A stretch of 64,000 nt of DNA from Clostridiales bacterium (lineage in GTDB: Bacteria; Bacillota; Clostridia; Oscillospirales; CAG-272): positions 19,333-83,332 of the forward strand of contig JAAWQR010000005.1 of the NCBI GenBank assembly GCA_022800625.1, written 5' to 3'. The notes beneath the pieces were generated by a model. The model was not told where the DNA came from, made no database searches, and saw only the letters and a list, made by a program, of their open reading frames with translations. Shown one piece after another: positions 10,853-33,998 of the stretch. Each line of letters begins with the position of its first letter. The stretch's first letter is position 1. The position numbers were made by a program, and so were the translations under genes.

Positions 10853-10855
10853 CGC

Positions 10856-11970: not shown

Positions 11971-12006
11971 GTAAATCTCACGACAGTCAAGCGGACGGAG
12001 GTACAG

Positions 12007-12585: not shown

Positions 12586-12609
12586 TAAATCCTGAAAGGA
12601 AATTATCAT

Positions 12610-12981: not shown

Positions 12982-13001
12982 CTTAGGAGGAAATATAGGC
13001 T

Positions 13002-14798: not shown

Positions 14799-14818
14799 GA
14801 AAGGAAACGACATTACAC

Positions 14819-16802: not shown

Positions 16803-16809
16803 AAGAATA

Positions 16810-16897
16810 TCAAACATGGGGAGCTTGTGTTACAGGCTGAGAGGAAGGTATACCTTCGACCCGAAACCTGATTTGGATAATGCCAACGTAGGGACAA
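16810..16897 (+). promoter_or_regulatory. TPP (THI-box) riboswitch aptamer
   Basis: Contains the conserved GGGGAGC...GGCTGAGA...ACCCGAAACCTGAT..GGATAATGCC..CGTAGGGA elements in canonical order. Located upstream of thiE. Confidence 0.88.
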
Positions 16898-16910
16898 AAT
16901 ACGCTCTTTG

Positions 16911-16950
16911 CGGATATACCGAGGCTTGGTATATCCGTATTTTGTTTATT
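16911..16950 (+). terminator. Riboswitch expression-platform terminator
   Basis: CGGATATACC-GAGGCTT-GGTATATCCG followed by TATTTTGTTTATT. The upstream AAAATACG can pair alternatively. Confidence 0.7.
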
Positions 16951-16979
16951 TCAGTATCGTATCAAGCAGGTAGAAGTAT

Positions 16980-17621
16980 ATGAAAATTAAAAGAGAAGAT
17001 CTATTGCTTTATGGAATAACAGACAGGTCGCGCCTTGGGGGAGCTGAGCTTTACGAGCATGTCAAAATGGCTCTTGACGGCGGTGTGACATTTTTGCAGC
17101 TCAGAGAAAAAAATCGTGAAAAAGATCAGGTTCTCGAAGAAGCGTGCCGAATAGGCGAGCTTTGCAGGGAATATAATGTTCCGTTTATAATAAACGATGA
17201 TCCTGAAATTGCTCGGCTGTCGGGTGCGGACGGAGTTCATGTCGGTCAGCGGGATATGGAGGCGGGACGCGTCCGCGAGATACTCGGAGAAGATAAAATC
17301 ATCGGGGTAACTGCACGTACGGTTGAACAGGCGATTGCTGCCGAGCGCAGCGGAGCGGATTACCTCGGCTGCGGCGCGGTTTTCCCTACAGGCACAAAAT
17401 CGGATGCGGTAGAGCTTGATCATAACACTTTGCGCAAGATATGCGAAGCTGTAAATATTCCTGTCATTGCCATCGGCGGAATTTGTGAAAACAATATTAT
17501 GGAACTTAAAGGCAGCGGAATATGCGGTGTTGCCGTTATCGGCGCGATTTTCGGAAGTGATGATATTAAATCTGCATCTGCGAGGCTTAAAGTTTTTGCA
17601 GAAAAGATGACAAGCTCATGA
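16980..17621 (+). CDS. thiE: Thiamine-phosphate synthase
   Basis: LYGITDR...VTFLQLREK...FIINDD...ADGVHVGQRD...IAIGGI motifs typical of ThiE. Confidence 0.9.
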   Translation: MKIKREDLLLYGITDRSRLGGAELYEHVKMALDGGVTFLQLREKNREKDQVLEEACRIGELCREYNVPFIINDDPEIARLSGADGVHVGQRDMEAGRVREILGEDKIIGVTARTVEQAIAAERSGADYLGCGAVFPTGTKSDAVELDHNTLRKICEAVNIPVIAIGGICENNIMELKGSGICGVAVIGAIFGSDDIKSASARLKVFAEKMTSS

Positions 17622-17640
17622 CAGTGAACAGAGGAAAAAG

Positions 17641-18075
17641 ATGAATATAGAGTACAGAACGCAAAAAGAGCTGCCAAATGATAAATTATATAAATTATTT
17701 CATGCGGTAGGATGGGTTAGGGAAGATACAACGACACAGGAGCTGACATCTCAGGAGATGTTCGATAATTTTAATATCGGATTTATCAATTCGACGTTTG
17801 TTTTTTCGGCATGGTGCAATGATAGATTAGTAGGCTGTGTAAGAGCTTTAAGCGACTTGCATTTCAGATCGGTTATGTATGATTTAGCCGTTTTGCCTGA
17901 ATTTCAGCACAGAGGTATCGGAACAGAGCTTGTAAGAAGATGCAGAAATGCTTGTGAAAATTCAGAATGGTTAGTTCAAACAGATGACGCTAAGGGATTT
18001 TATGAGAAGATCGGATTTAAGGAGAATAAGGATCATTTTCTGACAGTCCCGTGCAAATGGTTTAATAGTATTTGA
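17641..18075 (+). CDS. GNAT family N-acetyltransferase
   Basis: 144 aa. Acetyl-CoA motif FQHRGIGTELVRR and a C-terminal GFYEKIGF. Confidence 0.75.
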   Translation: MNIEYRTQKELPNDKLYKLFHAVGWVREDTTTQELTSQEMFDNFNIGFINSTFVFSAWCNDRLVGCVRALSDLHFRSVMYDLAVLPEFQHRGIGTELVRRCRNACENSEWLVQTDDAKGFYEKIGFKENKDHFLTVPCKWFNSI

Positions 18076-18106
18076 GATTTAATACGATAAACGGATTGGA
18101 ATTACT

Positions 18107-18769
18107 ATGATAAAAGGCGCAATTTTTGATATCGACGGAACGCTGATTGATTCAATGTTTATCTGGAATGACCTTGGAGTGAAGTATGTTAAAAGTCTCG
18201 GAAAGATTCCCGAAAACAATTTAGGTTATGAGCTTTCGCTTCGCAATATTGACGACGGCTCTGAATATATAAGAGACACATATGCGAGAAATTTTGAGGT
18301 ATCGGTGGTAAAGCAGGGGATACTTAATCTGGTACGTGACTTTTACTATCATGAAGTTAAGCTGAAACCGGGAGTACGAGGATTTTTGACAGCTCTGGCA
18401 GACAGAGGAATAAAGATGACGCTGGCAACAGGCGGAGAGAGAGAGCTTGCCGAAGCCGCTCTTTGCAGGCTTGGTGTGCTTGACATGTTTGACGGAATTT
18501 TTACCTGTAATGAACTGAAGACCACAAAAAACTTACCGCTTATATATAATACGGCAGCAGCTCATATCGGTTGTAAGCCATGTGAGACACTTGTATTTGA
18601 AGATGTTTTGCATGCTGTGCAGACGGCAGGTAATGCAGGATTTATAACAGTTGGTATAGCTGACGAAACAAGTGCTTCAGACAGAGAAGAAATAATAGCA
18701 AATTCCGATTATTATTTAGACGGATATGAGAATTTAGACGGATTCCTTGATTTTATTCTAACGAAATGA
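18107..18769 (+). CDS. HAD-IA family phosphatase (candidate thiamin monophosphate phosphatase by context)
   Basis: Motif I FDIDGTLIDS and motif IV-like VFEDVLHAVQTAGNAG. Embedded in the thi operon. Confidence 0.7.
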   Translation: MIKGAIFDIDGTLIDSMFIWNDLGVKYVKSLGKIPENNLGYELSLRNIDDGSEYIRDTYARNFEVSVVKQGILNLVRDFYYHEVKLKPGVRGFLTALADRGIKMTLATGGERELAEAALCRLGVLDMFDGIFTCNELKTTKNLPLIYNTAAAHIGCKPCETLVFEDVLHAVQTAGNAGFITVGIADETSASDREEIIANSDYYLDGYENLDGFLDFILTK

Positions 18770-18893
18770 ACTTACGCAGACTGCAATTACAGTCATTTGC
18801 CTATGATTGCAGATGAACGGAGTACATCAGCGGCAGACTGGGGGCACCACTATCTGCCGCTATATAAAAGTAATGCAAGTTCTAAATGAAAGG

Positions 18894-19727
18894 ATGGTTT
18901 TTACCTTGAAAACTGCATTAACGATCGCAGGAAGCGATTCCTGCGGAGGCGCCGGTATACAAGCAGACATCAAAACAATGACAATGAACGGTGTCTATGC
19001 GATGAGTGCGATTACAGCACTGACCGCGCAAAATACGACCGGCGTTACGGGAATTTCGGAGGTAACTCCCGATTTCCTCGAAGAACAGCTTGACAGAATA
19101 TTTACAGACATACGTCCTGACGCTGTGAAAATCGGTATGGTATCCGCGACAGCTCTGATTGAGGTCATATCGCGCAAGCTGAGAGAGTATGGGGCACAAA
19201 AAATTGTTCTTGATCCCGTAATGGTGGCAACAAGCGGAGCCGTGCTCATAAGCGGCGATGCTGTAGCTGCACTGAAAAGCGAGCTTTTGCCGATAGCAAC
19301 GCTTGCAACACCGAATATTCCCGAATCTGAGGCACTATCAGGAATAAAAATTTTAAGCGAGACTGATATGTTAAAGGCGGCACAGTTGATCTCGGAGAAA
19401 TACGGATGCGCTGTACTCTGTAAAGGCGGTCACAGCTTAAACGATGCAAACGATCTACTGTGGCAGAACGGAGAATATCGGTGGTTCAGGGTACGCAGGA
19501 TAGAAAACAGCAACACCCACGGAACAGGCTGCACGCTGTCAAGTGCTATTGCTTCAAATTTAGCTAAAGGATTCTCTCTCGAAGAATCGGTAGAGAGAGC
19601 AAAAGAATATATCTCCGGCGCGCTTGGCGCAATGCTTGATCTCGGGCACGGAAGCGGTCCGATGAATCACGCGTTTGACCTAAAAGGAAGATTTGCCGAG
19701 AATCCCGATGATTTTACAAACGCCTAA
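18894..19727 (+). CDS. thiD: Hydroxymethylpyrimidine/phosphomethylpyrimidine kinase
   Basis: LTIAGSDSCGGAGIQADIKT...GTGCTLSSAIA motifs. ATG 18894 (MVFTLKTALTIAG) is preferred over the ORF-track start at 18807. Confidence 0.88.
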   Translation: MVFTLKTALTIAGSDSCGGAGIQADIKTMTMNGVYAMSAITALTAQNTTGVTGISEVTPDFLEEQLDRIFTDIRPDAVKIGMVSATALIEVISRKLREYGAQKIVLDPVMVATSGAVLISGDAVAALKSELLPIATLATPNIPESEALSGIKILSETDMLKAAQLISEKYGCAVLCKGGHSLNDANDLLWQNGEYRWFRVRRIENSNTHGTGCTLSSAIASNLAKGFSLEESVERAKEYISGALGAMLDLGHGSGPMNHAFDLKGRFAENPDDFTNA

Positions 19728-19782
19728 GTTGATTATAAATAGCGTAACATTGCATATACACTGAAAGGATACAATTATAAAT

Positions 19783-21087
19783 ATGAGAAACTATACAACA
19801 CAAATGGACGCTGCGAAGCGCGGTATCATAACACCTGAAATGAAAGCTGTCGCTGAGAAGGAATACAGAACAGAAGAGGAAATCAGAGATTTGGTAGCAA
19901 AAGGGCAGGTTGCTATATGTGCTAATAAGCTGCATGAATGTATAGATCCGAACGGAGTAGGATCAATGCTGAGAACAAAAATCAATGTAAACTTGGGCAT
20001 TTCAAAGGACTGCAAGGATTATGATATTGAAATGCAGAAGGTTATGGCGGCAGTTGATATGGGAGCTGAGGCAATAATGGATCTCTCATCTCATGGAAAT
20101 ACACAGCCGTTCCGCAGAAAGCTGATCTCTGAATGCCCTGCAATGATAGGAACAGTTCCCGTATATGACAGTGTTATACACTATCAGAGAGATTTGGCAA
20201 CTCTTACAGCTAAGGATTTTATAGATGTAGTAAGACTTCATGCAGAGGACGGAGTAGATTTTGTCACACTGCATTGCGGCATCACAAGAAAAACGATTGA
20301 GCAGATAAAGAAGCACAAGAGAAAAATGAATATTGTATCTCGCGGCGGGTCACTTGTTTTTGCTTGGATGAGCATGACGGGTGAGGAGAATCCTTTCTAC
20401 GAGTATTATGATGAAATACTTGAAATTTGCAGAGAATATGACGTTACAATTTCTCTCGGAGACGCATGCCGACCGGGATGCCTTGCAGATGCGAGCGACG
20501 TTTGTCAAATCGAAGAGCTTGTGAGACTCGGCGAGCTGACAAAGCGCGCATGGGAAAAAGATGTTCAGGTTATGGTTGAAGGACCCGGGCACATGCCGCT
20601 TGATCAGATAGAAGCCAACATGAAATTACAGCAGACAATCTGCATGGGTGCACCTTTCTATGTTCTCGGACCGATCGTCACTGATATTGCTCCCGGATAC
20701 GATCATATTACATCGGCTATCGGAGGAGCTATCGCAGCGTCAGCGGGCGCCGCATTCCTGTGCTATGTAACGCCTGCCGAGCATCTCGCGCTTCCGAATG
20801 TTGAGGATGTAAAGCAGGGAATCATCGCGTCACGTATAGCGGCCCATGCTGCGGATATCGCAAAGCATATTCCCCACGCAAGAGATATTGACGATGAGAT
20901 GGCAGATGCAAGACGTACTTTTGACTGGGAGCGTCAGTGGGAGTGCTCGATCGATCCCGAGACAGCAAAGCGCATCCGTGATGAGAGAAAGCCTGAGGTC
21001 GAAGAAAGCTGTTCCATGTGCGGTAAATTCTGTGCGGTAAGAAGCATGAATAAAGCGCTGAACGACGAGTATATAGATATACTGTAA
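19783..21087 (+). CDS. thiC: Phosphomethylpyrimidine synthase (radical SAM)
   Basis: 434 aa. N-terminal [16 protein letters not shown] and C-terminal CSMCGKFC cluster motif. Confidence 0.92.
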
Positions 21088-21102
21088 CAATATAAAACAA
21101 TG

Positions 21103-21135
21103 AAAATGCTCAGACTTTTAAGTCTGAGCATTTTT
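21103..21135. terminator. Bidirectional intrinsic terminator between thiC and murE
   Basis: AAAATGCTCAGACT-TTTA-AGTCTGAGCATTTT, with A-tract and T-tract flanks. Confidence 0.8.
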
Positions 21136-21148
21136 GTATATATTTGAT

Positions 21149-22645
21149 TTATTCCCCATGAGCGGCGCTTTGAAGCATAATTGTTCTGCATTCATCGCGA
21201 ATGATCTCCCGCTCGGAAAACGGCACTTTTTCTCCGCGAATCAGCTGATATCTTTCGTGACCTTTTCCGGCGAAAAGCACGATATCGTTTTGTTCAGCCA
21301 TCTGAACTGCCCGCCTTACCGCGTCCTCGCGGTCAATTATAACCTCATACGGCGTTGATTTGTCGTAATGTTCAAGTATTTCGTCGGTTATATCAGACGG
21401 AGCTTCAAAGTCGGGATTGTCGCTTGTTATTATCGAATAATCGGCAAGCGCAGAAGAAGCTTCCGCAAGCTCGCGGCGTCTGTTTTTCGTCCTGCCTCCG
21501 ACAGAGCCGAAAACGCATATCAGCCTTTCCGGCTCATATTTTCTGAGTACGGTAAGCGCGCTTGTCAGGCTTAGTCCGTTATGAGCATAATCAATGATGA
21601 AGGTTCTGCCGGGGATTCCGTCTACTACCTCAAATCTGCCTGTGACAGAGGTCAGAGCAAGAATATCGGCAGCATCTTTTACGCTCACACCGTAGTAGGA
21701 GCATGCGGCAATAGCTGCAAGGCCGTTACATACGCTGAACTCTCCCGGATTTCGCATCTGAACTCTTGTAGTTCTGCCTGCATTTGAGCAGTTAAAGAAT
21801 ATTCCGAGCGAGGTTTCGTCTCGATAGGGCATCGGTGAGGTCCCGACAAAATCGGCGTTTTCGTCTTTTGTAGAAAAAACGAGGGCAGGGCAGGATATTC
21901 CGTCCTTCATAAAGGATGCGGCATCGTCATCCTCATTAAATATTGCAAGCCTGCAGCCGTAATCCGTAAACAGCTTTTTCTTAGCGGCGCGGTATTCTTC
22001 AAATGAAGCGTGCTCGCCCTCTCCGATGTGATCGGGCGAAAGATTTGTAAATATGCAAACGTCGAAGCTTATTCCCTGAACTCTGTTGTGATTGAGCGCT
22101 TGAGACGATACCTCGATTACCGCGTGAGTTACGCCTTCCGACAGCATTATGCTGAAATAATGCTGAAGCTCACGGCTTTCGGGAGTTGTATTTACTGTTT
22201 CCACATGCTTGCCGTTTATTATAACTCCGTTTGATCCTATGTAAGCGCAGGGAATACCGCTTTTTTCAAGTATAGACTGAATCAGCAGGGAGGTAGTTGT
22301 CTTTCCCTTCGTTCCCGTGATTCCGATGATATGGAGCTTTTCGGCGGGATATCCGTAAAACGCGGCGGAAATTTCAGCAAGCGCGCTTCTTGTATCAGGA
22401 GTTGCCGCCTGAAACGCATTTGAGGGAAGATCGAGAGGTCGCTCACATAAAAATGCTCGGCAGCCAGCTCTGTATGCCGCGGCAGCAAAGTCATGACCGT
22501 CCGCACGGGCGCCGGGCAGACAGACAAAAAGCTCGCCTTCATTTATGAGACGTGAGTTGTATTCGATGCGGTCGACTTCACATGCGTCAGCGTTGCCGCA
22601 GAGTACTGTGTATTCGATATTTTTAAATAATTCTGAAAGCTTCAT
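21149..22645 (-). CDS. murE: UDP-MurNAc-L-Ala-D-Glu:diamino-acid ligase MurE (non-DAP type signature)
   Basis: GITGTKGKTT P-loop and Mur ligase architecture. The specificity tetrad reads DNPD (nt 21410-21421) rather than the DNPR of meso-DAP-adding enzymes. Confidence 0.88.
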   Translation of the reverse strand: MKLSELFKNIEYTVLCGNADACEVDRIEYNSRLINEGELFVCLPGARADGHDFAAAAYRAGCRAFLCERPLDLPSNAFQAATPDTRSALAEISAAFYGYPAEKLHIIGITGTKGKTTTSLLIQSILEKSGIPCAYIGSNGVIINGKHVETVNTTPESRELQHYFSIMLSEGVTHAVIEVSSQALNHNRVQGISFDVCIFTNLSPDHIGEGEHASFEEYRAAKKKLFTDYGCRLAIFNEDDDAASFMKDGISCPALVFSTKDENADFVGTSPMPYRDETSLGIFFNCSNAGRTTRVQMRNPGEFSVCNGLAAIAACSYYGVSVKDAADILALTSVTGRFEVVDGIPGRTFIIDYAHNGLSLTSALTVLRKYEPERLICVFGSVGGRTKNRRRELAEASSALADYSIITSDNPDFEAPSDITDEILEHYDKSTPYEVIIDREDAVRRAVQMAEQNDIVLFAGKGHERYQLIRGEKVPFSEREIIRDECRTIMLQSAAHGE

Positions 22646-22707
22646 AAAGGATGACCAACCTTTCCCTGATCGCTTGTGATCTGTAAGGTAAAACGTGCTT
22701 TTAGCTT

Positions 22708-23481
22708 TTATTTTTTCGCTGCGATAAGATTTGATGCTGTTTCTTCAGCCTTAAAATCAGGTGTAAAGCCTGCGGGAGTGTGTCCGAACAGCCTGATAGC
22801 ACACCATGCCAAAACCTCAAGCGAATCTACAAATCTTGTATCCTGAGGAAAGCCGCTTTTCAGTACTGAAAGTTCGGTGCAGCCGAGTATTGCGCATTCA
22901 CAACCCGATTCAAACATCGGATAAGCGACGGAGTACAGCTTTTCGGGAGGAGAAACGAGTCCTTTTTTTACATCGCCGTAAATTATATCGGTTATTATCT
23001 CCTGAGCGTCTCGATTCGGGATCTCCCAAGCAATACCTTCTTTTTCAAGCTCCTTTTGATATGAACCTGATGAAACAGTCCCCTCTGTTGCTAAAATGCA
23101 CGATTTTTTGTATCCGCATCTTTTAATATGCGCAACGGTTTCCGATATGATGCTCGGAACGGGGACGGAAACGGCACGGCGTACCTCTTCTATGAAATAG
23201 TGCGCGGTATTGCACGGTATTACGATTGCGTCAGCTCCGTATTTTTCAAGAAGCTTTGCGTCCTCGATCATGTACGGAAGAGGATCTTCATCGCTTTTTC
23301 CGAGTATAAAATCAGTTCTGTCAGGAGTAGTTGCACGGCTTGATAAAATTATGTCAATATGCTCCTGATCACGCGCTGCCGCCGTTCGTTTTGTGATTAG
23401 TTCGTAGAAGTATGCGCTTGACAGCGGTCCGAGACCGCCGAGTATTCCGAGAATCGAGCGGTTTTTTCCGATTTGGTGCAT
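22708..23481 (-). CDS. Aspartate/glutamate racemase family protein (probable aspartate racemase)
   Basis: Two catalytic-Cys motifs, IPCNTAH and LGCTELS. N-terminal GILGGLGP. Confidence 0.8.
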   Translation of the reverse strand: MHQIGKNRSILGILGGLGPLSSAYFYELITKRTAAARDQEHIDIILSSRATTPDRTDFILGKSDEDPLPYMIEDAKLLEKYGADAIVIPCNTAHYFIEEVRRAVSVPVPSIISETVAHIKRCGYKKSCILATEGTVSSGSYQKELEKEGIAWEIPNRDAQEIITDIIYGDVKKGLVSPPEKLYSVAYPMFESGCECAILGCTELSVLKSGFPQDTRFVDSLEVLAWCAIRLFGHTPAGFTPDFKAEETASNLIAAKK

Positions 23482-23500
23482 CTCGCCGTCCTCCTTTTTG

Positions 23501-24733
23501 TTATTTGTTTACAGGATAATATATCTTGAATTTTTTCTTTTGCCGTCTCAGTTGCTCTGCCGCGCAGAGGAATCGCATCGGATTTGTCCTGAAATCGTGC
23601 TTATACCAAACGGATGAGGCGTGCTTGCCTTCTTTTGCAAGTTTTTTTGCAGTCTCGACAAGCTCTTTGTCTTCTGTATATTTATATGCGACGGAACGCG
23701 GTACATGATGCCAGAAAAATTTCTTTTCGCATTTTTCAAGAGAATCTCCGCCGTCAGTGTAAACTTCTGCGGCAAGACGTGCAATATTCATCCCTGCTGC
23801 TGTTACGTAATAGTTGCTTCTGCCCTGTCTCAGATTTATCTCAAAAACTCTGAAGTCATTTTTTGTTCCGGGGCGGAGCTTGATATCAAAGTTTGAAAAT
23901 CCCGTGTATCCGAGAGCCTCAAGCATTGCTTTCAGCTTTTCCGCAAGCGGGAATCCTGATACAGGCTCTGTCACTATCGCAGCATGGTTGCCGAGTCCGT
24001 GCGGCGTGTGCTCCTCAAGCATCGTATGACCGAGACACATTGCACGGACGCGTCCTTTTTCATCGGAAAAAGCAGTAAAAACGCGCATCTGTGAATCGCC
24101 GCCCTCGATGAATTCCTGCATAACTATCTTATCATCGTAGCCTGAAGCATAAATTTCTTTTATTATTTTTTCGGATTCTTCGGGATCCGCTGAAGTGTAG
24201 ACTTTTTTCATGCTGTCAAACGGGTGCTTCCAATAAGCAACGCTGGAAGATGGCTTTATAATTATCGGATATTTAAAGCCGAGATTGTTTTCCGTAAGCT
24301 CAGAGGCTTTCATTTCCCTGTCCGTAATGTATGTGTCCGGATACGGAATATCATATTTGTCGCACAGCTCGTAAAATTCAGCCTTTTTTGAAATAATCGG
24401 CTGAAGAGCGGCATCGGGATAAGGAATAATGTACTCAGGCAGCTTGCTGCGGCATCTTGCAATAAGTGTAGCATAGTCGTCCGTGCAGCCGAAGAGTACC
24501 AGCTTTTCGCCTTTATGAGACTTAGCAAAATCCGTGAGTGTTTTAAGCATTACAGGCTCAGAATCGATATCGGTAATCTGCGTGAAATTTATAAGCTTTG
24601 AGTATTTGGTGGCAGAAACAGGATATCTGCCGAAAGCATATGAGTGAACGCCGTACTGCTCATGAAAAGCTCTTGCAACATTGTAGCAGTTAAGGTCAGC
24701 TCCGAGAAGCACGGGGGTGATATTTGTATTCAT
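23501..24733 (-). CDS. ATP-grasp carboxylate-amine ligase (candidate D-aspartate ligase)
   Basis: About 410 aa ATP-grasp protein. I prefer ATG 24733 (MNTNITPVLLGADLNCYN) after GGAAAGGA. Lies between the racemase and asnB. Confidence 0.65.
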   Translation of the reverse strand: MNTNITPVLLGADLNCYNVARAFHEQYGVHSYAFGRYPVSATKYSKLINFTQITDIDSEPVMLKTLTDFAKSHKGEKLVLFGCTDDYATLIARCRSKLPEYIIPYPDAALQPIISKKAEFYELCDKYDIPYPDTYITDREMKASELTENNLGFKYPIIIKPSSSVAYWKHPFDSMKKVYTSADPEESEKIIKEIYASGYDDKIVMQEFIEGGDSQMRVFTAFSDEKGRVRAMCLGHTMLEEHTPHGLGNHAAIVTEPVSGFPLAEKLKAMLEALGYTGFSNFDIKLRPGTKNDFRVFEINLRQGRSNYYVTAAGMNIARLAAEVYTDGGDSLEKCEKKFFWHHVPRSVAYKYTEDKELVETAKKLAKEGKHASSVWYKHDFRTNPMRFLCAAEQLRRQKKKFKIYYPVNK

Positions 24734-24762
24734 ATTGATAATTCCTTTCCGAGGGGTTAAGT

Positions 24763-26607
24763 TCAAATTCCGAAGAATTGTTTATGCCATGTGAGGAAGG
24801 TATATGCGGTCCAAATCTTTCGTCCGTTGTTGGCGCGTCCCTCTTTATGGTCGTCAAGCAGAGAAACAAGGCGCTGTGCGTCAAAGTATTCAGCGGCGGT
24901 ATCAGAAGTAAAAGCGTCTTTTACAATTCCGTAGTATTTGTCCTCGCGAAGCCAATTGCGTATCGGAACAGGGAAGCCCTTTTTAGGTCTGTTCGCCCAT
25001 TCATCGGGGAGTGTTCTGTTTGAGGCCGCTCTGAGAACTGCCTTGGTGTTCTCACCGTTTATTTTGTATCCTGTAGGTATAGCGGAAGCTTCTCTCATGA
25101 CTTCGCGGTCGAGATACGGAACTCTCAGTTCAAGCGAATGAGCCATGCTCATTTTATCAGCCTTCAGAAGAATGTCGCCTGGAAGCCAAAGATTCAGGTC
25201 AAGATACTGCTTCTTTTCGACCTCGGAAAGTCCTTTTGTTCTCTCATAAATCGGGCGAGTAATGTCGTCGATTGACGGACCGTTTTTATACTTTCCGCGC
25301 AGCACATCAAGCGCTTCTTTTTCGGGGAATACAAGCGCCTGACCGATAAAGTAATTTTCAGGAACGCCGCTTCCGCGGATAATAAAATCATGTCCCTTGA
25401 AGTACGGAAGAGCGGATGAAGCCGACGCGGCAAGACGTCTCAGCGGAGAGGGGACTTTTTTATATTTTCTCATGAGCGGTGATTCGTCATACCATTCGTA
25501 CCCTGCGTAAATTTCGTCGGCACCCTCGCCCGACAGTACTACCGTAACGTGCTCGGATGCGAGCTTAGCAAGGAAGTACAGCGGAACGGACGACGGATTC
25601 GACTGCGGCTCATCCATATGGTACTGAATTGTGGGAAAAGCCCTAAAGCATTCTTCGGCTGTCAGGTGACGCATGTGATTTTTTATTCCGAGTATATCCG
25701 AGAGAGCCTCAGCTTCGCTCGTTTCATCAAACCGTTCGGCGTTAAATCCGACAGAGAAAGTGTCGTTCGGCATAAGAGCCGCCGTGATGTAGCTTGAGTC
25801 TACACCTCCCGATAGGAAAGAGCCGACTTTAACATCGCTTATACGGTGAGCGGCTACCGATTCTCTGACGCGTGAGTCGATAAGATCTGCGCATTCGTCA
25901 AACGAATACGAGGCTTTTTCTCCGAAATTTACGTCCCAGTAGCGCCCTATATTCATTTTTCCGTCTTTGTATGTGAAAGAATGCGCCGCGGGCAGCTTGA
26001 ATACTCCCTTGAAGAATGTTTCCTCAGTAGCTGAGTACTGGAATGTAAGATACGGTCTGATCGCGTCGGGATTTACTTCCGGTTTAAAGTCAGGATGTTC
26101 AAGGAAGCTTTTAATCTCCGAGCCGAAGAGCAGAGAGCCGTTCTTTGTTACCGTGTAGTAAAAAGGCTTTATACCGAACGGATCACGCGCACCGAATAGA
26201 GTGCGAGTTTTTTTATCCCAAATCACAAAGGCAAACATGCCGCGCAAATGCTCAGTAATCTTTTCGCCGAATTCTTCATAGCCGTGGATTATCGTTTCCG
26301 TGTCGCATTTTGTTTTGAATACGTGACCGCGTGCGATAAGCTTATCGCGAAGGGACATAAAATTATAGATCTCGCCGTTAAAGACGATGACTACAGTTCC
26401 GTCCTCATTGTACATCGGCTGAGCGCCGTCCGACAGGTCTATGATGCTGAGCCTGCGGAAGCCGAGGGTTACGGTGTCGGGCGAGAGTGATTCATCAAGA
26501 AAATATCCTTCAGAATCAGGTCCTCGGTGTATTATACGATCCGCCATTTTGCGGATAACTTCTTTTCTGTGTTCTGTTTCTCCTGTAAAGCCGATAAAGC
26601 CGCACAT
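24763..26607 (-). CDS. asnB: Asparagine synthase (glutamine-hydrolysing)
   Basis: N-terminal MCGFIGF Ntn-Cys and SGGVDSS PP-loop. 614 aa. Confidence 0.9.
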   Translation of the reverse strand: MCGFIGFTGETEHRKEVIRKMADRIIHRGPDSEGYFLDESLSPDTVTLGFRRLSIIDLSDGAQPMYNEDGTVVIVFNGEIYNFMSLRDKLIARGHVFKTKCDTETIIHGYEEFGEKITEHLRGMFAFVIWDKKTRTLFGARDPFGIKPFYYTVTKNGSLLFGSEIKSFLEHPDFKPEVNPDAIRPYLTFQYSATEETFFKGVFKLPAAHSFTYKDGKMNIGRYWDVNFGEKASYSFDECADLIDSRVRESVAAHRISDVKVGSFLSGGVDSSYITAALMPNDTFSVGFNAERFDETSEAEALSDILGIKNHMRHLTAEECFRAFPTIQYHMDEPQSNPSSVPLYFLAKLASEHVTVVLSGEGADEIYAGYEWYDESPLMRKYKKVPSPLRRLAASASSALPYFKGHDFIIRGSGVPENYFIGQALVFPEKEALDVLRGKYKNGPSIDDITRPIYERTKGLSEVEKKQYLDLNLWLPGDILLKADKMSMAHSLELRVPYLDREVMREASAIPTGYKINGENTKAVLRAASNRTLPDEWANRPKKGFPVPIRNWLREDKYYGIVKDAFTSDTAAEYFDAQRLVSLLDDHKEGRANNGRKIWTAYTFLTWHKQFFGI

Positions 26608-26812
26608 AGTTTATATAAACTCCGTTCTGCCGCAAGTCGGCGGCACAAATTGATTTTCCTTCATACATGTTTATGGTATGACCTTATTTATTATATCATG
26701 ATTTTTTCCTTAAAGCCGCCTATGGCGGCATAAAATAGAAAAATCAGTCACGGGTAAAAATTTCATTACATGTTGCCGTGCCGCGTAAGCGGCACTTTGG
26801 CATTCACTGTTT

Positions 26813-26882
26813 TTATTATATCACATTCGGTCCCATAAATAAATACGTAGGATTGATTTTTTGCTTCAATATGTGATATGTG
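26813..26882. repeat. Copy A of a ~70-bp repeat carrying a minus-strand promoter and ATATGTG-ATATGTG tandem heptamer
   Basis: Hand alignment with 29003..29070 gives 51/70 identical positions. TTATTATATC and AATATGTGATATGTG are perfectly conserved. Reverse complement gives TGTGATATAATAA (extended -10) facing asnB. Confidence 0.6.
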
Positions 26883-27114: not shown

Positions 27115-28413
27115 ATGGAATTGACAGGATTATCGGATTTATATAATGATTTTATATCAGAACAACATTTTATATCCTCTGTTAAAGATAATATAGGGAT
27201 TTATGATGTAAATATTTACACTGTTCAAATGGAAGAAGATATAGATCTATTGGAGTATATTCTAAACAACATATATAGCGGGAAAGATTTCCTTAAACGT
27301 AGAGGGATTTCAATATCAGAAAGTTTGAATACACTAAGGGCAAGAATTAAGTCTGTCAAGTCAATGAATAAGGTCGATTTTTTTAGATTGTTATGTTCTG
27401 CACTTGATGATATTAAAGACAGTCATCTCGTTTTTTCTCTTCCATACTTCAAAAATATACATCAGTTTTGTAGACATAATACCGTATATTTTGCTGACAT
27501 AACATTACAAAAAGATAGCGGTGGATATTTCATATTGTCTTCACAAGATTCGTCGGTAAAATGTGGGGAGCGTGTCATAATAGAAGAAGATTATCTATTC
27601 AGAACAGTTGATGGAAAATTTTTGTACGGAGTTTTCAGCGAAAAGCCGATTAAAACGATTACTTGTAACATTACAGGAGAAAAAGTACAATTGAATGTGT
27701 TACCGTCACCATTAAGACCGATAAAAAATAATGATTTATGGTCACATGAAAATTGTAATGGAATTGACATAGTCACAATATACAGTCTTTGTGCATTTAG
27801 CGTTGATGAAGAACAGAAACTGGAAGAATTAGTTGCACTGGGGAAAGTTCTAAAAGAATCAAAAAAAATCATACTGGATCTCCGAGGAAATAGAGGTGGC
27901 GATTCAGAAATTGCGCGAAGATTTATTGAGAACCTTAACGGCAGTGCATATATGAATTTAAATTATGCGAAACTGAATACGCAAGGAAGCAGATTAGCAG
28001 AAATAAGTCTTTATGCTGAGGATTTTGACAGTTATAGAAAGGTAAAAGAAGAAATTTTCCTTGATCCGGTTTGTAAGTGGCAATGTTCTGAATCTAATTT
28101 TATTTGTGACGGTCAGTATAAGAATCAACTTGTTGTATTAACAGACAGGCATACGGCATCTTCAGCAGAAATTATGTTGAAATGTATTAAGGATAATATT
28201 CCGCAGAGTGTTATAATTGGCGAAAATACAAGCGGGACGCTTAGCACAGGTGACATCAGACATTATTATCTGCCAAATTCTTTGATTTTTTTGGATGTTC
28301 CTACCGCAATATTTGCAGATATATTAGAAGAAGGAACAGGGTTTTGTCCTGATTTTTGGGACAAGGATGATGCCATGCAATCGGCTATAGATTTTTTGTC
28401 ACAAAAAAATTAA
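27115..28413 (+). CDS. S41 (C-terminal processing peptidase)-like protein, no signal peptide
   Basis: LDLRGNRGGD and TDRHTASSAEIM match S41 core motifs. The N-terminus is acidic and non-hydrophobic. The gene is strongly AT-rich relative to its neighbours. Confidence 0.5.
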   Translation: MELTGLSDLYNDFISEQHFISSVKDNIGIYDVNIYTVQMEEDIDLLEYILNNIYSGKDFLKRRGISISESLNTLRARIKSVKSMNKVDFFRLLCSALDDIKDSHLVFSLPYFKNIHQFCRHNTVYFADITLQKDSGGYFILSSQDSSVKCGERVIIEEDYLFRTVDGKFLYGVFSEKPIKTITCNITGEKVQLNVLPSPLRPIKNNDLWSHENCNGIDIVTIYSLCAFSVDEEQKLEELVALGKVLKESKKIILDLRGNRGGDSEIARRFIENLNGSAYMNLNYAKLNTQGSRLAEISLYAEDFDSYRKVKEEIFLDPVCKWQCSESNFICDGQYKNQLVVLTDRHTASSAEIMLKCIKDNIPQSVIIGENTSGTLSTGDIRHYYLPNSLIFLDVPTAIFADILEEGTGFCPDFWDKDDAMQSAIDFLSQKN

Positions 28414-28582
28414 ATATGGTTTATATAACATATACATTCAAAAGAATAGTTATATAAGTTTGAGAATTGAATTTTTGAAAAATATAAATGACGGGACAGA
28501 GCATATAAAATGCAGGGGGATTGAGTCTGAACAATCACCCTGCATAAATTTCGGTTGCAATATATTTGTTTCAACACATATC

Positions 28583-28960
28583 TCAATATCTGTTTCCATT
28601 TTTATTAAAGTTCTTTCTAAGTGCAATTTCAGTGAGAATCATAGTGCATATTATAACAACAATTTGTACCGAACAAACTACTCCGCCGATTATACCTATA
28701 TTAATGATATCTTTTCTGAATGCAAAAAGCATTACAGCTACGGATATAGGCAATATGATCCATCCGCACACTTTCCAAAGTTTCCCGAAGTATTTGTGTG
28801 CAAATTTCCAAGTCTCTTGATTCTTCATAGACATGTTTGTTCTGTATCCGGATGTAGCATTGATTTCTTTTGGAGGATTTTTCTCAAATCGATGTCCAGA
28901 ATAAATCATTGCAAGTGGGATCAATAAGTCCATGATCAACATAAATGTCCGAAATGCCAT
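28583..28960 (-). CDS. SdpI/YhfL family small membrane protein
   Basis: 125 aa. The pattern ...NxxxGYRTxxSMKNxETWxxAH..., followed by TM helices, is characteristic of the SdpI family. A strong AAGGAGG lies upstream. Confidence 0.55.
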   Translation of the reverse strand: MAFRTFMLIMDLLIPLAMIYSGHRFEKNPPKEINATSGYRTNMSMKNQETWKFAHKYFGKLWKVCGWIILPISVAVMLFAFRKDIINIGIIGGVVCSVQIVVIICTMILTEIALRKNFNKNGNRY

Positions 28961-29002
28961 AAAATACCTCCTTAAAGTTGACTTTTATTATATTTTACAA
29001 CA

Positions 29003-29070
29003 TTATTATATCGCAATTGATTATGTAAGTAAATATATGTCTGATTTTTTTCCTGAATATGTGATATGTG
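29003..29070. repeat. Copy B of the ~70-bp promoter-containing repeat
   Basis: See copy A. Reverse complement gives TTTACT, 17 nt, TATAAT facing the SdpI-family gene. Confidence 0.6.
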
Positions 29071-29167
29071 TGATTCTTTGAGGGGCTGAAAAAACGAGTT
29101 ATTTATTTTTTATTTTGTATATCACAAGATGAAAAATACCATAAAAATGCATAATAAAATTTAGGGG

Positions 29168-29196
29168 TTGCAATTTTAATTTGTTTGTGATATAAT
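29168..29196 (+). promoter_or_regulatory. Sigma-A type promoter of the G5/3D gene
   Basis: TTGCAA (29168-29173), 17 nt, TATAAT (29191-29196) with TG extension (TGATATAAT). Confidence 0.65.
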
Positions 29197-29371
29197 AAAC
29201 GCGTTATTGCCTTTCAAGGTCTATGCTCTCGTTGCAAAAGCAGCGCGAACTTTCACCATGAAATACAGCGTCTAAAGCGCAGTCAGACGGGGTATTTCAC
29301 AAATTTCCGGCAGGCAGTCGCAAGGCTTCCGCCGGCGGAAAGGAATCGCCAAACGGCGAGAAGGTGTTTTC

Positions 29372-31087
29372 TTGTATCTACGATCAGATAACTCTGATAG
29401 TACCGATTTAAGCCGCACCGCTATCACCGGGCAATCAGGCAAATTGCTCAGAGAAGGCATTATATCAGAAGAAACTGCAAATCCGCAGACTGAAACGGAT
29501 CAGTTTGACTTTGACGAGTCGGAAATTCCGGCATGTGTAAGGAGGAAGAGTACCAAACGGACAAATTCTGTGCAGACAGGCAATAATAACATCTCAAGCA
29601 CAGAACATATCGGCAATAGGGCCGATATGTCAAAAACCGCAGATATTCCGAATCTCAGAACAGCCGAGGTTGACGTTAAAGCAATCCGTGCAATGCGCAC
29701 GGGAACGTATCCTAAAGTATGCGAGACGAGCAAAAAGCCATCGTGCACGGGGCAGATACCCGTGATAGGTAAGCAGAGGAGAGATACCTCTGAGATACCC
29801 GCAGTGCGCCAAGCAAATTCACGTACGGGCAATATTCCTACAGTGAAGGCGCAAAAAAAATCATTGTTCTCAAAGCTCACATGGAGAACAAAATCCGAGC
29901 GGAGCGGAAAGGCTCCGTGTTTCCATACTATCCGTGGCGCGGAAGATATGGAGAAGTCAGTATACATTCCCGAGAGATTGTTATCTTTCATAGGAAGGCG
30001 GCGAAAAGCTGTATTAGTTGCAGCTTCATGCCTTGTCCTCGTATGCGTAGCTGTTCCGACAGCCGTATATGCGGCCTCAAAGGGTGTCTCTGCTGACAAA
30101 GACTTAGCGGACTTTGAAATTATTGAGACAGGCGATGACTTATATGCCATGAGTCTTGACGGCGTGTCTGCAGACGCGTTCAAACTGTCATCGGCAAATG
30201 TTCTTTATAATGATTTCGAAAAGTCTGATGACGACAAAGATAATGACACAGAAAAGAATGAAACTATTGATGAAGATGTGACATCTGAAGGAGCAATGCT
30301 GCTCAGCACGGATACCGAAGAAGATGCGGCGTCAGCCGAATTTCTGTCTGAAAATTTTTTCACGGTAACACTGCAGTTCTATGATAGAGACAGTATCACA
30401 TGCTCGACCTCCCCCCTGACCTTGAGGGAGCTGTTCGCAAAAGTCGGATATACGCAGCGAGATACTGATAAGATCTACGCAGGACTTGACGATGTGATTG
30501 ATTCAGAATGCACTATAATAATTGACAGCGTTGAATATTCAACTTTGACTGAGACTGAAAGCATACCTTTTGAGGTGGAAACGATCGATGTACAGTCTAT
30601 CCCGCGCGGAACAACTCAGACGGTAACAGACGGCGCAGTCGGTGCGCGCGACGTTGTATACACTGTCGAATATGTAAACGGAGTTGAAGTGTCCCGCGAA
30701 AAGCAGTATGACTATGTTGTGAGTGAGCCTGTAAATCAGGTTGAATACCGAGGAGTCGGCGGGGTGCTTTATGCTCCCGACGGAAATGCGTATTCTTATT
30801 CATATTGCGTAACAGTTCGTGCAACATATTATGATCTTCCGGGAAGAACGGCTTCCGGTATGCCCGTTGGCAATAACATTGTGGCAACCGATCCGTCAGT
30901 TTTCCCACTCGGCACGAATATGTATGTCATGAGCGACTCATACGATATGGGTCTGAGAGTTGCGGCAGATACCGGCGGCGGTGTCAAAGGTAACCTCATT
31001 GACATTTGGATGGATCAGTCATCTCCCAATTTTGCACGTTTTTCATCACAGGGTGTCGCGGAAATGACAGCTTATATTCTTGACTGA
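29372..31087 (+). CDS. Membrane-anchored G5 + 3D (MltA/RlpA-like) domain cell-wall protein, YabE/RpfB-like
   Basis: Apparent TTG start after GAGAAGGTG. About 215-aa cytoplasmic region and one TM helix (AVLVAASCLVLVCVAVPTAVYA). G5-like segment (TQTVTDGAVGARDVVYTVEYVNGVEVSRE) and C-terminal 3D domain (ATYYDL...TASG...VATDPSVFPLGT...AADTGGGVKGN.IDIW). Confidence 0.75.
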   Translation: MYLRSDNSDSTDLSRTAITGQSGKLLREGIISEETANPQTETDQFDFDESEIPACVRRKSTKRTNSVQTGNNNISSTEHIGNRADMSKTADIPNLRTAEVDVKAIRAMRTGTYPKVCETSKKPSCTGQIPVIGKQRRDTSEIPAVRQANSRTGNIPTVKAQKKSLFSKLTWRTKSERSGKAPCFHTIRGAEDMEKSVYIPERLLSFIGRRRKAVLVAASCLVLVCVAVPTAVYAASKGVSADKDLADFEIIETGDDLYAMSLDGVSADAFKLSSANVLYNDFEKSDDDKDNDTEKNETIDEDVTSEGAMLLSTDTEEDAASAEFLSENFFTVTLQFYDRDSITCSTSPLTLRELFAKVGYTQRDTDKIYAGLDDVIDSECTIIIDSVEYSTLTETESIPFEVETIDVQSIPRGTTQTVTDGAVGARDVVYTVEYVNGVEVSREKQYDYVVSEPVNQVEYRGVGGVLYAPDGNAYSYSYCVTVRATYYDLPGRTASGMPVGNNIVATDPSVFPLGTNMYVMSDSYDMGLRVAADTGGGVKGNLIDIWMDQSSPNFARFSSQGVAEMTAYILD

Positions 31088-31155: not shown

Positions 31156-32577
31156 CTATTCAAAAAATCTGTCAACCTCACGATTTGCAAGCACGGGATC
31201 GGCTTTTCCTCCCGTTTCCCGCATTACATAACCTACTATTACTTTTTTTGCGCCGAGCTTGCCCTTTTTTACTTCACGTACAGCTTCGGGAAGCGACTTT
31301 GCTGCCTTTATTATAAGTGTTCTTATCGTTTCGGCATCGCGTATCATGAACAGATTCATTTTTTCTGCGATCTCTCTCGGGGAATTACCGCTGTTACTGA
31401 CAGATGCAATAAGCTTTTTGGCAGATACAATGTTTATCTCTCCTGCGCTGTACATTGCGGAAATTTCAGAAAGCTTTTCGGGAGACAGGATAGATTTTGA
31501 GTCTTTCATTTTCGGAAAAACTTCACTGACAAATAAATTGGAGAGAGTAAGCGCATCAGATTTATCGGATATTGCCGATTCAAAGTAAGCTGCTGTTTCG
31601 GGAGACGTGCATATTATCCCAGCGTTTCCGTCTGAAATACCGAACTTTCTCATAGAAGCTTTGATCTCTCCCGGCATTCTCGGCATCTCCGCGCGTATTC
31701 TTTCAACATACTCTTTGTCTGTAAGAATCGGAGGAATATCAGGCTCTCTGATATATCTGTAATCAGAACAGCTTTCCTTTGAGCGCATGCGTTCGGTCTT
31801 TCCGGAGGATTCGGAGAATCGGCGTGTTTCACATTCTATTTTGCCGCCGTTCTCAATAATATCGACCTGTCTTTTTAATTCGCTTTCAATTGCTCGTCCG
31901 ATAAAATTTACGGAATTTATATTCTTTATCTCACACCGCGCTCTAAGTGTATTCTCTCCCTCTTTTCTGACTGATATATTAACGTCACATCTGAGCGAAC
32001 CTTCGTTCATCTTACAGTCTGACACACCTGCGAACAGCAGTCTGCTGCGCAGTTCATTTACAAACGCCATAGTTTCGTCAGCGCTTCTCATATCAGGCTC
32101 GGTTACAATCTCAATGAGCGGTACACCGCAGCGATTGTTGTCGATATTGACTCCGTTTTCCGAGTACGATAGTTTGCCCGCGTCTTCCTCCATATGAATT
32201 TCTCGGATTCTTATTTTTTTGTCTTTTTCACCATCGCTGAGTGTAACATATCCGTCAAGGCATAGCGGAGAATAAAACTGTGTTATCTGATACCCTTTCG
32301 GAAGATCGGGATAGAAATAATGTTTTCTGTCAAAATATGATATCTCGGAAATACGGCAGTTTAGGGCTAATCCCGCGCGCACGGCAAGGCTGACGGCTTC
32401 TCCGTTCAGGCAGGGAATAGCTCCCGGCATACCGAGACATATCGGACAGCAGTTTCTGTTCGGCTCATTTCCGTATGCGGTGCTGCATGAGCAAAACGCT
32501 TTTTCGGCAGTTTTTAATTCAACATGGACTTCCGCGCCTATTACGGGTTCATATCCTTTATATAATGTATTACTCAT
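31156..32577 (-). CDS. gatB: Asp-tRNA(Asn)/Glu-tRNA(Gln) amidotransferase subunit B
   Basis: N-terminal YEPVIGAEVHVELKT and a C-terminal YqeY-like tail. 473 aa. Confidence 0.92.
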   Translation of the reverse strand: MSNTLYKGYEPVIGAEVHVELKTAEKAFCSCSTAYGNEPNRNCCPICLGMPGAIPCLNGEAVSLAVRAGLALNCRISEISYFDRKHYFYPDLPKGYQITQFYSPLCLDGYVTLSDGEKDKKIRIREIHMEEDAGKLSYSENGVNIDNNRCGVPLIEIVTEPDMRSADETMAFVNELRSRLLFAGVSDCKMNEGSLRCDVNISVRKEGENTLRARCEIKNINSVNFIGRAIESELKRQVDIIENGGKIECETRRFSESSGKTERMRSKESCSDYRYIREPDIPPILTDKEYVERIRAEMPRMPGEIKASMRKFGISDGNAGIICTSPETAAYFESAISDKSDALTLSNLFVSEVFPKMKDSKSILSPEKLSEISAMYSAGEINIVSAKKLIASVSNSGNSPREIAEKMNLFMIRDAETIRTLIIKAAKSLPEAVREVKKGKLGAKKVIVGYVMRETGGKADPVLANREVDRFFE

Positions 32578-32579
32578 TT

Positions 32580-33998
32580 TTACACGTCCGTACTCATAAT
32601 ATTATTTTGATGAGTTTTAAATATTCTCTCAAGCGCATATGCAGTTCTGCAGAGCTTTTCTTCTTCGCCGTGCTTTGCCGTCAGCTGGATTCCGACCGGT
32701 AATTTGTTTTTGTCTCCTGACGGGATAACCACAGCGGGGATTCCTGTGAGATTAGCATATGCTGTGAATTTGTCACTGCCTGTCGTATCTTCTCCGATAC
32801 GACGGGTATCATTAAGAGACGGTGCGGTGATATCTGATACGGGGGTTAAGATTATATCAAATTTTTCAAACAGATAATCGGTATTTTTTCTCAATCGTCT
32901 TTGCACTTCAAGAGCGGAAACATAAATTTTCCCGTTATCATACGTCAGCACATATGCGCCCTGAGCCAGCCTTTCTTTTACCTTTGTTCCGAATCCCTCG
33001 TTTCTTGTACCTTCAACAGTTCCCATAGCAGAGCTGAAGCCGTACCGCAAGCCGTCGTATCTTGCAAGGGTTGACGATGCTTCGGCGGAGGATATCGCAT
33101 AATATATCTCAGGTATGGTATCGATCATCGGAAGCCTTGTTTCCGAAACGTTTGCTCCTGATTCTTCAAGCAAAGCAAAAAGCCTTTTGTCGCATCCGAG
33201 TCCGGGTATTGAGCCGATTCTCATGCCTTTAAGAGTTTCTGTATCGCTGACTCCATATTTTTTGCCCTGAGAATACAGAGTTGTCATATCTCTCTCGTCT
33301 TTTCCGCAGATCACGCTGTATAGAAGAGCACAGTCTCGTATATCGCGGCTGATCGGACAGATTTGCTCAAGAGACGGAGCCAACCCAGTAAGACCGAACC
33401 GTGATACGCTGCCGTAAGTAGGCTTCAGAGCAGATACTCCGCAGAATGCGGCGGGAAGTCTTGCAGAACCTCCTGTGTCGCTGCCGAGAGACAGCAGAGC
33501 TTCTCCTGCTGCGACACTTGCGGCAGAGCCTGAGGATGAGCCGCCGGGACTTCGCTCTGTATCATGCGGATTCAGCGTCATGCCGAACGCCGATGTTGTT
33601 CCGTCCGCTCCGATTGCAAACTCATCCATGTTCGTTTTGCCGATCGGTACGGCGCCTGCCGCAAGTATTTTTTCATAAACAGACGCGCTGTAGCTCGGTA
33701 TGAAATTTTCAAGCATACGCGATGCACAGGTAGTTTTTATTCCTTTAGTGCAGATATTGTCTTTTATCGAAATTGGAATGCCTGCAAGCGGAAGATTTAC
33801 AAGTTCAGACTTTGACATGCAGTCGATTCGGCTTGCAGTCATTTCTGCTTCTTCGCTGCAAATCGTAATAAAAGAGTTATACTTATTTTTTTCTGCGCGT
33901 TTTATATAAGCTTTCAGCACTTCAAGAGCGCCCAGCCGCCTCTCCCTTACAGCGCATGAAAGCTCTGTCGCACTAAGCTTCAGTATATCGTCTGACAA
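32580..33998 (-). CDS. gatA: Asp-tRNA(Asn)/Glu-tRNA(Gln) amidotransferase subunit A
   Basis: Amidase signature GGSSSGSAASVAAG. Separated from gatB by 2 nt. Confidence 0.92.
   Translation of the reverse strand: MSDDILKLSATELSCAVRERRLGALEVLKAYIKRAEKNKYNSFITICSEEAEMTASRIDCMSKSELVNLPLAGIPISIKDNICTKGIKTTCASRMLENFIPSYSASVYEKILAAGAVPIGKTNMDEFAIGADGTTSAFGMTLNPHDTERSPGGSSSGSAASVAAGEALLSLGSDTGGSARLPAAFCGVSALKPTYGSVSRFGLTGLAPSLEQICPISRDIRDCALLYSVICGKDERDMTTLYSQGKKYGVSDTETLKGMRIGSIPGLGCDKRLFALLEESGANVSETRLPMIDTIPEIYYAISSAEASSTLARYDGLRYGFSSAMGTVEGTRNEGFGTKVKERLAQGAYVLTYDNGKIYVSALEVQRRLRKNTDYLFEKFDIILTPVSDITAPSLNDTRRIGEDTTGSDKFTAYANLTGIPAVVIPSGDKNKLPVGIQLTAKHGEEEKLCRTAYALERIFKTHQNNIMSTDV

Follow-up and report, generated by a model that had tools for sequence, protein, structure and literature searches.

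We describe a four-gene operon, in the order asnB, ligase, racemase and murE, on the minus strand of a 64-kb stretch of an uncultured gut Clostridia genome (the window, meaning the whole stretch of DNA analyzed). This operon probably encodes a complete set of tools for making a cell wall whose stem peptide contains lysine (Lys) or ornithine (Orn) and whose cross-bridge is D-aspartate (D-Asp) or D-isoasparagine (D-isoAsn), the substrates, the order of the reactions and the chemotype being read from homology and gene context. The genes were delimited with a list of open reading frames (ORFs) and a script run on window coordinates (Table 1). An initial annotation of this DNA had reported four co-oriented genes with gaps of 19–62 nt, and the ORF list gives just such a quartet, with 29 nt between the asnB stop codon and the ATG of the ligase gene, 19 nt between the ligase and racemase genes and 62 nt between the racemase gene and murE. 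It had also named the products as AsnB, an ATP-grasp protein of about 410 aa, a two-Cys racemase and a MurE with a DNPD tetrad. Pfam and NCBIfam models recognize three of them, homology and fold identify the ATP-grasp protein, and translation places the tetrad exactly where it had been reported.

A single scan of GTDB species representatives with the ligase yielded 328 relatives, and the best 80 of these 328 loci were analyzed. All 80 were of the Oscillospiraceae type, consisting of metagenome-assembled genomes (MAGs) labelled Clostridia, Eubacteriales, Oscillospiraceae or uncultured Ruminococcus, with Gemmiger formicilis, Candidatus Gemmiger, Candidatus Avispirillum and uncultured Subdoligranulum as the named carriers. 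The order asnB-ligase-racemase-murE was found in almost every locus uncut by a contig end, and the operon was conserved in about 70 of the 80; asnB was its first gene in 74 loci and the ligase and racemase genes were adjacent in 73. The Gemmiger/Subdoligranulum group had the order asnB-ligase-murE, with no racemase gene between. When the flanking ORFs were clustered, the four genes were the only common ones, any other gene occurring in at most 13 loci, and the neighbourhood of the operon differed between genomes. Because the order is identical in almost all 80 genomes and the flanks are not shared, this arrangement is not due to chance and the four-gene block is a conserved unit. The initial observation that genes for the three presumed bridge functions are joined to murE in one operon is borne out by the recurrence of the block across these 80 species-level genomes.

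In an HMMER alignment with solved MurE structures, the DNPD tetrad of the window enzyme sits on the DNPR of enzymes adding meso-diaminopimelic acid (mDAP) and on the DDPR of Thermotoga. DNPR was found in the aligned enzymes of Escherichia coli, Bacillus velezensis and Fusobacterium, and in the dcw-cluster MurE copies of Monoglobus and Subdoligranulum variabile, and tetrads without arginine were found in Staphylococcus aureus (DNPA), Enterococcus faecalis (DDPA), Collinsella (EDPA) and Vescimonas (DDPD). The loss of this arginine, noted in the initial annotation, extends to all 70 operon-linked MurEs reaching the motif (65 DNPD, 5 DNPN and no DNPR). In DNPR, it is the asparagine and the arginine (Arg416) that bind mDAP by its distal carboxylate, and in the S. 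aureus enzyme, which has no arginine in its DNPA, the lysine pocket is set by negative charge (PMC3829189). A second motif was apparent in the 150 nearest MurE representatives, clustered at 50% identity, out of 1.8 billion proteins. Their tetrads included DNPR (57), DNPD (32), DNPG (15) and DNPN (7), and at residues 381–383 (nt about 21410–21505, together with the tetrad) the form xGG went with arginine in a ratio of 69:0, and xVG or xIG with a non-arginine residue in a ratio of 66:1. On these alignments, the window MurE is to be placed in a distinct and large non-Arg subfamily, apart from the Lys-ligase lineage of Bacilli, with L-Lys or L-Orn, and not mDAP, as its predicted substrate. We claim that it would work like an L-lysine-adding enzyme while being no member of that lineage. 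Like the S. aureus and E. faecalis enzymes, it has lost the arginine and kept the first aspartate and the GKGxE glutamate contacting the epsilon-amine, but its fourth residue is aspartate rather than alanine, it has an xVGG(R/K)(T/S) signature of its own, and it is nearer to the mDAP enzymes of Clostridia and Bacillus. The annotation of the Collinsella EDPA enzyme as an mDAP ligase, like that of the window enzyme in GenBank (see below), suggests that non-Arg MurEs are probably systematically mislabelled in this way. The gene for a further Oscillospiraceae MurE with an acidic fourth residue (DDPD) was observed on the Vescimonas fastidiosa replicon pMM35_01 (5950–7437), where it stands alone, flanked by a gene for an ABC substrate-binding protein and by thyA and close to pgeF; this replicon yielded no ligase homologue.

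Collinsella aerofaciens provides a partial parallel, with an asnB gene (58% identity) directly upstream of its non-Arg murE. It differs from the window in being an actinobacterium, in having neither ligase nor racemase at this locus and in its diamino acid, Orn, the wall having reportedly been assigned by Kageyama in 1999 to type A4beta, L-Orn-D-Asp. The window MurE could therefore be an Orn-adding enzyme too.

The ATP-grasp protein matched no curated Pfam or NCBIfam model and no sequence in the PDB. An AlphaFold2 model built with 38 homologues (mean predicted local distance difference test 90.7, predicted template modelling score 0.89) has an ATP-grasp fold, and the best Foldseek match in the PDB was PylC (E about 1e-15), with L-amino-acid ligases, PurD/PurK and biotin carboxylase scoring nearly equally. 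We count the likeness to PylC in favour of a D-Asp ligase, because PylC, too, links a D-amino acid to lysine at its epsilon-amine. When the ligase of Latilactobacillus curvatus was used to seed a search, a Lactobacillaceae/Pediococcus family was obtained, several members of which are named D-aspartate ligase by UniRef, JGI or NCBI. One of these, the "D-aspartate ligase" of Pediococcus pentosaceus, is 33% identical to the window ligase over residues 3–410 (BLASTP, E 3e-77), and hhalign aligned the window-ligase family with the lactic-acid-bacterial family over 406 columns (probability 100%, E 1.7e-85). The alignment takes in the C-terminal extension beyond the ATP-grasp core. Searching PLSDB with tblastn revealed homologues over 99–100% of the length in Lactobacillus crispatus (35% identity), Limosilactobacillus fermentum (32%) and L. 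curvatus (31%), these records being chromosome fragments filed as plasmids. All three species have walls of the Lys- or Orn-D-Asp type. The gene context is similar, since the ligase gene is preceded by aspS and an amino-acid racemase gene in L. curvatus and by asnB in L. crispatus. Clustering with unrelated ligases, which the initial annotation had held up as an outcome that would count against it, is not what these end-to-end alignments and common neighbours indicate. Database-named orthologues and synteny support the view that the window protein is a D-aspartate ligase homologue.

The racemase matches the aspartate racemase model TIGR00035 (214.6 bits) and PF01177 (136 bits). Its best solved match is the aspartate racemase of Pyrococcus horikoshii (1jfl, E 1e-53), to which both catalytic cysteine motifs, PCNTAH and GCTE, can be aligned, in agreement with the two-Cys Asp/Glu racemase first proposed, and it is 35% identical to the racemase adjoining the L. 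curvatus ligase. A 654-aa protein (P0529) from Ligilactobacillus ruminis-like contigs (Logan/ENA) carries the ligase (residues 1–416) and an aspartate racemase (420–654) in one frame, ligase first, the two parts being 100% identical to the separate proteins P0144 (ligase) and P0527 (racemase). The joined frame represents a true fusion or else a read-through call and, if real, would constitute a Rosetta-stone link between ligase and racemase.

AsnB (TIGR01536, 534 bits; GATase_7 and Asn_synthase domains) begins with MCGF, placing a cysteine at position 2, and contains the PP-loop SGGVDSS. Its identity was highest with S. variabile (64%), followed by Collinsella (58%), Planococcus (56%), Sporosarcina (54.5%), lactobacilli (L. 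crispatus, 48%) and Bacillus/Listeria (42–44%), a ranking that weakly favours organisms of the D-Asp or Lys type. An asnB gene adjoins the ligase gene in L. crispatus, S. variabile and a plasmid of Bacillus mycoides, and a non-Arg murE in Collinsella. The case for a role in the wall relies mainly on this gene context, and we propose that AsnB amidates the alpha-carboxyl group of the D-Asp side chain, as AsnH does.

Taken together, the enzymes would act as follows. MurE, with an aspartate in place of the mDAP-binding arginine, would load L-Lys (most likely) or L-Orn (possibly) onto UDP-MurNAc-L-Ala-D-Glu, and the two-Cys racemase would convert L-Asp into D-Asp. The Asl-type ligase would activate the beta-carboxyl group of D-Asp as an acyl phosphate and attach it to the side-chain amine of residue 3 on the nucleotide precursor, after which the AsnB-type amidotransferase, with glutamine as the donor, would turn D-Asp's free alpha-carboxyl into an amide, yielding D-isoAsn. 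The amino group of the D-Asx residue would finally be used by penicillin-binding proteins for cross-linking, resulting in an A4alpha (Lys) or A4beta (Orn) wall. If this reading, which we consider likely, is right, the operon would completely define position 3 of the stem peptide and its side chain. The wall type put forward in the initial annotation is supported, with Orn as an alternative to Lys, and those of its possible refutations that could be addressed in silico all favoured it.

The pathway itself is already known from lactic acid bacteria. It has been described in Enterococcus faecium, Lactococcus lactis and lactobacilli: AslA couples D-Asp to L-Lys by way of a beta-aspartyl phosphate, racD belongs to the aslA operon, and AsnH amidates the bridge afterwards, since D-Asn is not a substrate of the ligase (PMC4155827). 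Homologues of both enzymes are also encoded in B. adolescentis. As in the Racfm-Aslfm pair of E. faecium and the RacD-AslA pair of L. lactis (EC 6.3.1.12), the gene for an ATP-grasp ligase of about 410–420 aa adjoins that of a two-Cys racemase in the window, but here the pair lies within a four-gene operon with asnB and murE. The comparison with Aslfm and AslA was made via their named Lactobacillaceae/Pediococcus orthologues, which are about 31–35% identical to the window ligase, and the racemase gene follows the ligase gene in the window, whereas it precedes it in L. curvatus. AsnH of L. lactis and AsnB1 of Lactobacillus plantarum are, like the window AsnB, long AsnB-type amidotransferases linked to wall-precursor genes; the window AsnB differs in sharing one operon with a ligase, a racemase and murE, the context from which its substrate is deduced. 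Literature searches on the wall types of Subdoligranulum and Oscillospiraceae, on Lys-D-Asp in Clostridia and on Aslfm work touching Clostridia found nothing relevant. Three features therefore appear to be undescribed in the searchable literature: the pathway in Oscillospiraceae, the fusion of all its steps with murE in a single operon, and the non-Arg MurE subfamily with its second motif.

Several observations weigh against this reading, beginning with those on MurE. The protein passes the NCBIfam equivalog model for mDAP ligases (NF001126, 438.7 versus a cut-off of 373) and does not reach the L-lysine-ligase model (NF010628, 333.3 bits versus a cut-off of 536), and it is 34–37% identical to the mDAP enzymes of Firmicutes versus 30–31% to the Lys enzymes of S. 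aureus and E. faecalis. In GenBank, a protein identical to it (MCI9449111.1, from the MAG of a "Clostridiales bacterium") carries the name UDP-N-acetylmuramoyl-L-alanyl-D-glutamate--2,6-diaminopimelate ligase. The A409R variant of S. aureus MurE gained no use of mDAP, so the tetrad is not the sole determinant of specificity (PMC3829189). Faecalibacterium, the sole member of Oscillospiraceae listed with an assigned diamino acid in a 2024 review, has mesoDAP, and Ruminococcus and other genera of Ruminococcaceae are given there as being of undetermined peptidoglycan type (PMC11382707). AsnB1 of L. plantarum amidates mDAP, and its gene lies next to murE (PMC4155827). The public annotation would be correct if MurE added mDAP, AsnB amidated it in the manner of AsnB1, and the ligase and racemase served an unrelated purpose. 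We consider this extremely unlikely, given the replacement of the mDAP-binding arginine by an acidic residue or, in five cases, asparagine throughout the 70 orthologues, the distinct subfamily signature that goes with this loss, and the fixed position of the ligase and racemase genes between asnB and murE.

A further point of this kind concerns the racemase, which scores 183 bits with a cysteate racemase model, almost at the cut-off of 190. Lys-D-Glu walls exist in Planococcaceae, and AsnBs from this family are among the closest named relatives of the window AsnB. The ligase might then add an acidic D-amino acid other than D-Asp, for example D-Glu, or the racemase might have another substrate, in which case the bridge would not be D-Asp; the identity of no more than 31–35% to the lactic-acid-bacterial ligases would be compatible with such a difference. 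D-Glu is already supplied for position 2 of the stem, and that the operon has a racemase of its own suggests Asp. The best solved match of this racemase and the pairing of racemase and ligase as in D-Asp organisms argue in the same direction, and a bridge of another kind is very unlikely.

The presence of a gene for asparagine-tRNA ligase (asnS, 669 bits) in the window is also unfavourable, because it implies that the cell needs free asparagine, so AsnB could have a housekeeping function. AsnB would then be an ordinary asparagine synthetase, or would amidate some other target, and the bridge would remain unamidated D-Asp. TIGR01536 is a general asparagine synthase model, and the identity of AsnB to the enzymes of mDAP-type Bacillus and Listeria is only slightly below that to the lactobacillar ones. 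Set against this are the place of asnB at the head of a conserved operon, its adjacency to the ligase gene or to murE in the other organisms named above, and the precedents of AsnH and AsnB1 as dedicated wall amidotransferases (PMC4155827). We consider a housekeeping AsnB unlikely. The gatB and gatA genes, for the amidotransferase acting on mischarged tRNA, and asnS were observed in the window at 31156–33998 and 57936–59327, respectively.

The last group of unfavourable observations comes from S. variabile. In strain TSDC17.2-1.1, the dcw cluster (OY725839.1, 3400–14621) has the order mraZ-rsmH-PBP-murE-murF-mraY-ftsW-murG, PBP being a penicillin-binding protein gene, and its MurE has DNPR. 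Another contig (OY725879.1, 7001–10875) carries ligase-racemase-asnB, with metG and tatD next in line and murE absent. The non-Arg MurE was sought in the PLSDB records of this species with a Gemmiger query, and only the dcw copy was found, the chromosome record being outside that collection. Either a non-Arg MurE is encoded at a third locus, or the stem to which D-Asp is attached in this organism contains mDAP. The co-occurrence of the module with a DNPR MurE means that the ligase module alone is no strict proof of a Lys wall, and carriers of the operon may hold a second, mDAP-type MurE. No second MurE and no dcw genes were found in the 64 kb of the window, and an exact look-up of its MurE returned metagenome contigs and one 84-kb MAG contig only.

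A related gene set was found on the Bacillus mycoides conjugative plasmid pl546 (CP067054.1, 546 kb), in the order ligase-racemase-asnB (3981–7826 and 12118–12930). The ligase gene is split into two coding sequences, and asnB, which lacks an annotation, matches as two fragments, suggesting that the set is probably decaying. Its presence on this plasmid hints at horizontal movement of the bridge module. A gene for an Amj lipid II flippase was observed near the set.

These loci bear on the possibility of an accessory or dual chemotype, in which the genome would also have a dcw mDAP-type MurE. In that case the operon would serve as a second, conditional cassette, used under stress or for one of two structures, the vegetative wall and the spore cortex, or its ligase would decorate mDAP stems, giving an A4gamma-like wall. 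Lysinibacillus sphaericus is a precedent for a difference in chemotype between vegetative wall and spore cortex. The two separate loci of S. variabile, the differing neighbourhoods of the operon and the decayed plasmid set speak for a second cassette. The window itself, with neither a second MurE nor a dcw cluster, speaks against it, as does the near-universal presence of the intact operon in the 80 species, which fits a core function. Sporulation is not established either, the one SpoVK-like protein of the window falling below the model cut-off. A dual chemotype is therefore rather unlikely in our view. We suggest, with similar reservation, that the genes might constitute a self-contained, relocatable chemotype cassette beside a dcw mDAP MurE, allowing two peptidoglycans or switching between mDAP, the form detected by NOD1, and Lys/Orn-D-isoAsn, which escapes this sensor, with the ligase-racemase-asnB part moving alone, as exemplified by S. 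variabile and the B. mycoides plasmid.

The four genes are best explained as one transcription unit, extending between a promoter around 26690 and a terminator at 21100–21137, and this too forms part of the reading that we consider likely. The TGATATAAT element nearest to asnB (Table 1) is likely to be the operon promoter: a TGnTAnAAT element was found 49–164 nt upstream of asnB in 22 of the 25 relatives examined. The hairpin between the convergent thiC and murE genes would mark the 3' end of the operon. The ligase ORF can be read as 421 aa from a TTG at 24766 or as 410 aa from the ATG at 24733. The TTG was rejected as the start, because almost all homologues are 410 aa long and the ATG is preceded by a ribosome-binding site (GGAAAGGA). 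The asnB leader (26608–26830) holds three of the six GCCGC-N(4–6)-GCGGC sites of the 64 kb, and the two TGATATAAT elements within it are 125 nt apart. Folding of a 203-nt stretch of this leader gave -57.9 kcal/mol (z = -3.9), and the leader could contain an attenuator or encode a small upstream transcript. The leader is not conserved in relatives other than one locus (L047), most of them lacking the hairpins, and a search of the 650 nt upstream of asnB for a T-box or riboswitch with Rfam gave no match even at E <= 1.

Table 1. Genes, motifs and candidate transcription signals of the asnB-ligase-racemase-murE operon (window coordinates).
Feature	Position (nt)	Strand	Evidence
asnB-type glutamine-dependent amidotransferase, 614 aa	24763-26607	-	TIGR01536, Pfam GATase_7 + Asn_synthase
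ATP-grasp ligase, D-aspartate ligase (Asl) family, 410 aa from ATG 24733	23501-24733	-	Homology, fold
Pyridoxal-phosphate-independent two-Cys aspartate racemase, 257 aa	22708-23481	-	TIGR00035, PF01177, 1jfl alignment
MurE, non-DNPR subfamily, 498 aa	21149-22645	-	Three Mur ligase domains, DNPD tetrad
DNPD codons (MurE residues 409-412), GACAATCCCGAC	21410-21421	-	Translation
Bidirectional intrinsic-terminator-like hairpin, 14-17 bp stem	21100-21137	both strands	Between convergent thiC and murE
Extended -10 promoter element TGATATAAT	26690-26698	-	83-91 nt upstream of asnB ATG
Second TGATATAAT copy in asnB leader	26815-26823	-	
Three GCCGC-N(4-6)-GCGGC leader hairpins	26629-26644, 26715-26729, 26780-26793	-	

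Downstream, a plus-strand thiamine operon converges on murE (16807–21087). A thiamine pyrophosphate riboswitch (58 bits) comes first, followed by thiE, genes for a GNAT acetyltransferase and a HAD hydrolase, thiD and thiC. Beyond it (8163–16558) lies a cluster for an electron-bifurcating-type [FeFe] hydrogenase, encoding a thioredoxin-like 2Fe-2S protein, a Nuo51-like subunit, the hydrogenase large subunit, a further hydrogenase-like protein whose FeS domain is PAS-less, a PHP-domain protein and a pair of histidine-kinase-like ATPases. On the other side of the operon, at 27115–31087, 36321–37733 and 44450–45547, are genes for a divergent S41-like peptidase, an SdpI-family membrane protein, a G5 and 3D domain protein, MltG/YceG and an M14 carboxypeptidase; none of these nearby envelope genes is conserved beside the operon in the relatives.

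If the reading is correct, a large and poorly cultured clade (at least 80 of the 328 GTDB species matched, including relatives of Gemmiger and Subdoligranulum) builds Lys/Orn-D-Asx rather than mDAP walls. Ruminococcaceae and Oscillospiraceae are abundant in human and ruminant guts, and the operon could be used to predict the chemotype of their members. The chemotype alters which innate immune sensors respond and which lysins and endopeptidases cut the wall, NOD1 being a sensor that detects mDAP-containing fragments. The covarying xVG/DNP[DGN] signature would be a simple marker and could serve to correct the naming of mDAP ligases. The chemotype of these bacteria also bears on the attribution of the Lys-Asn/Asp muropeptides targeted by liquid chromatography-mass spectrometry in mouse faecal peptidoglycan (PMC9942837).

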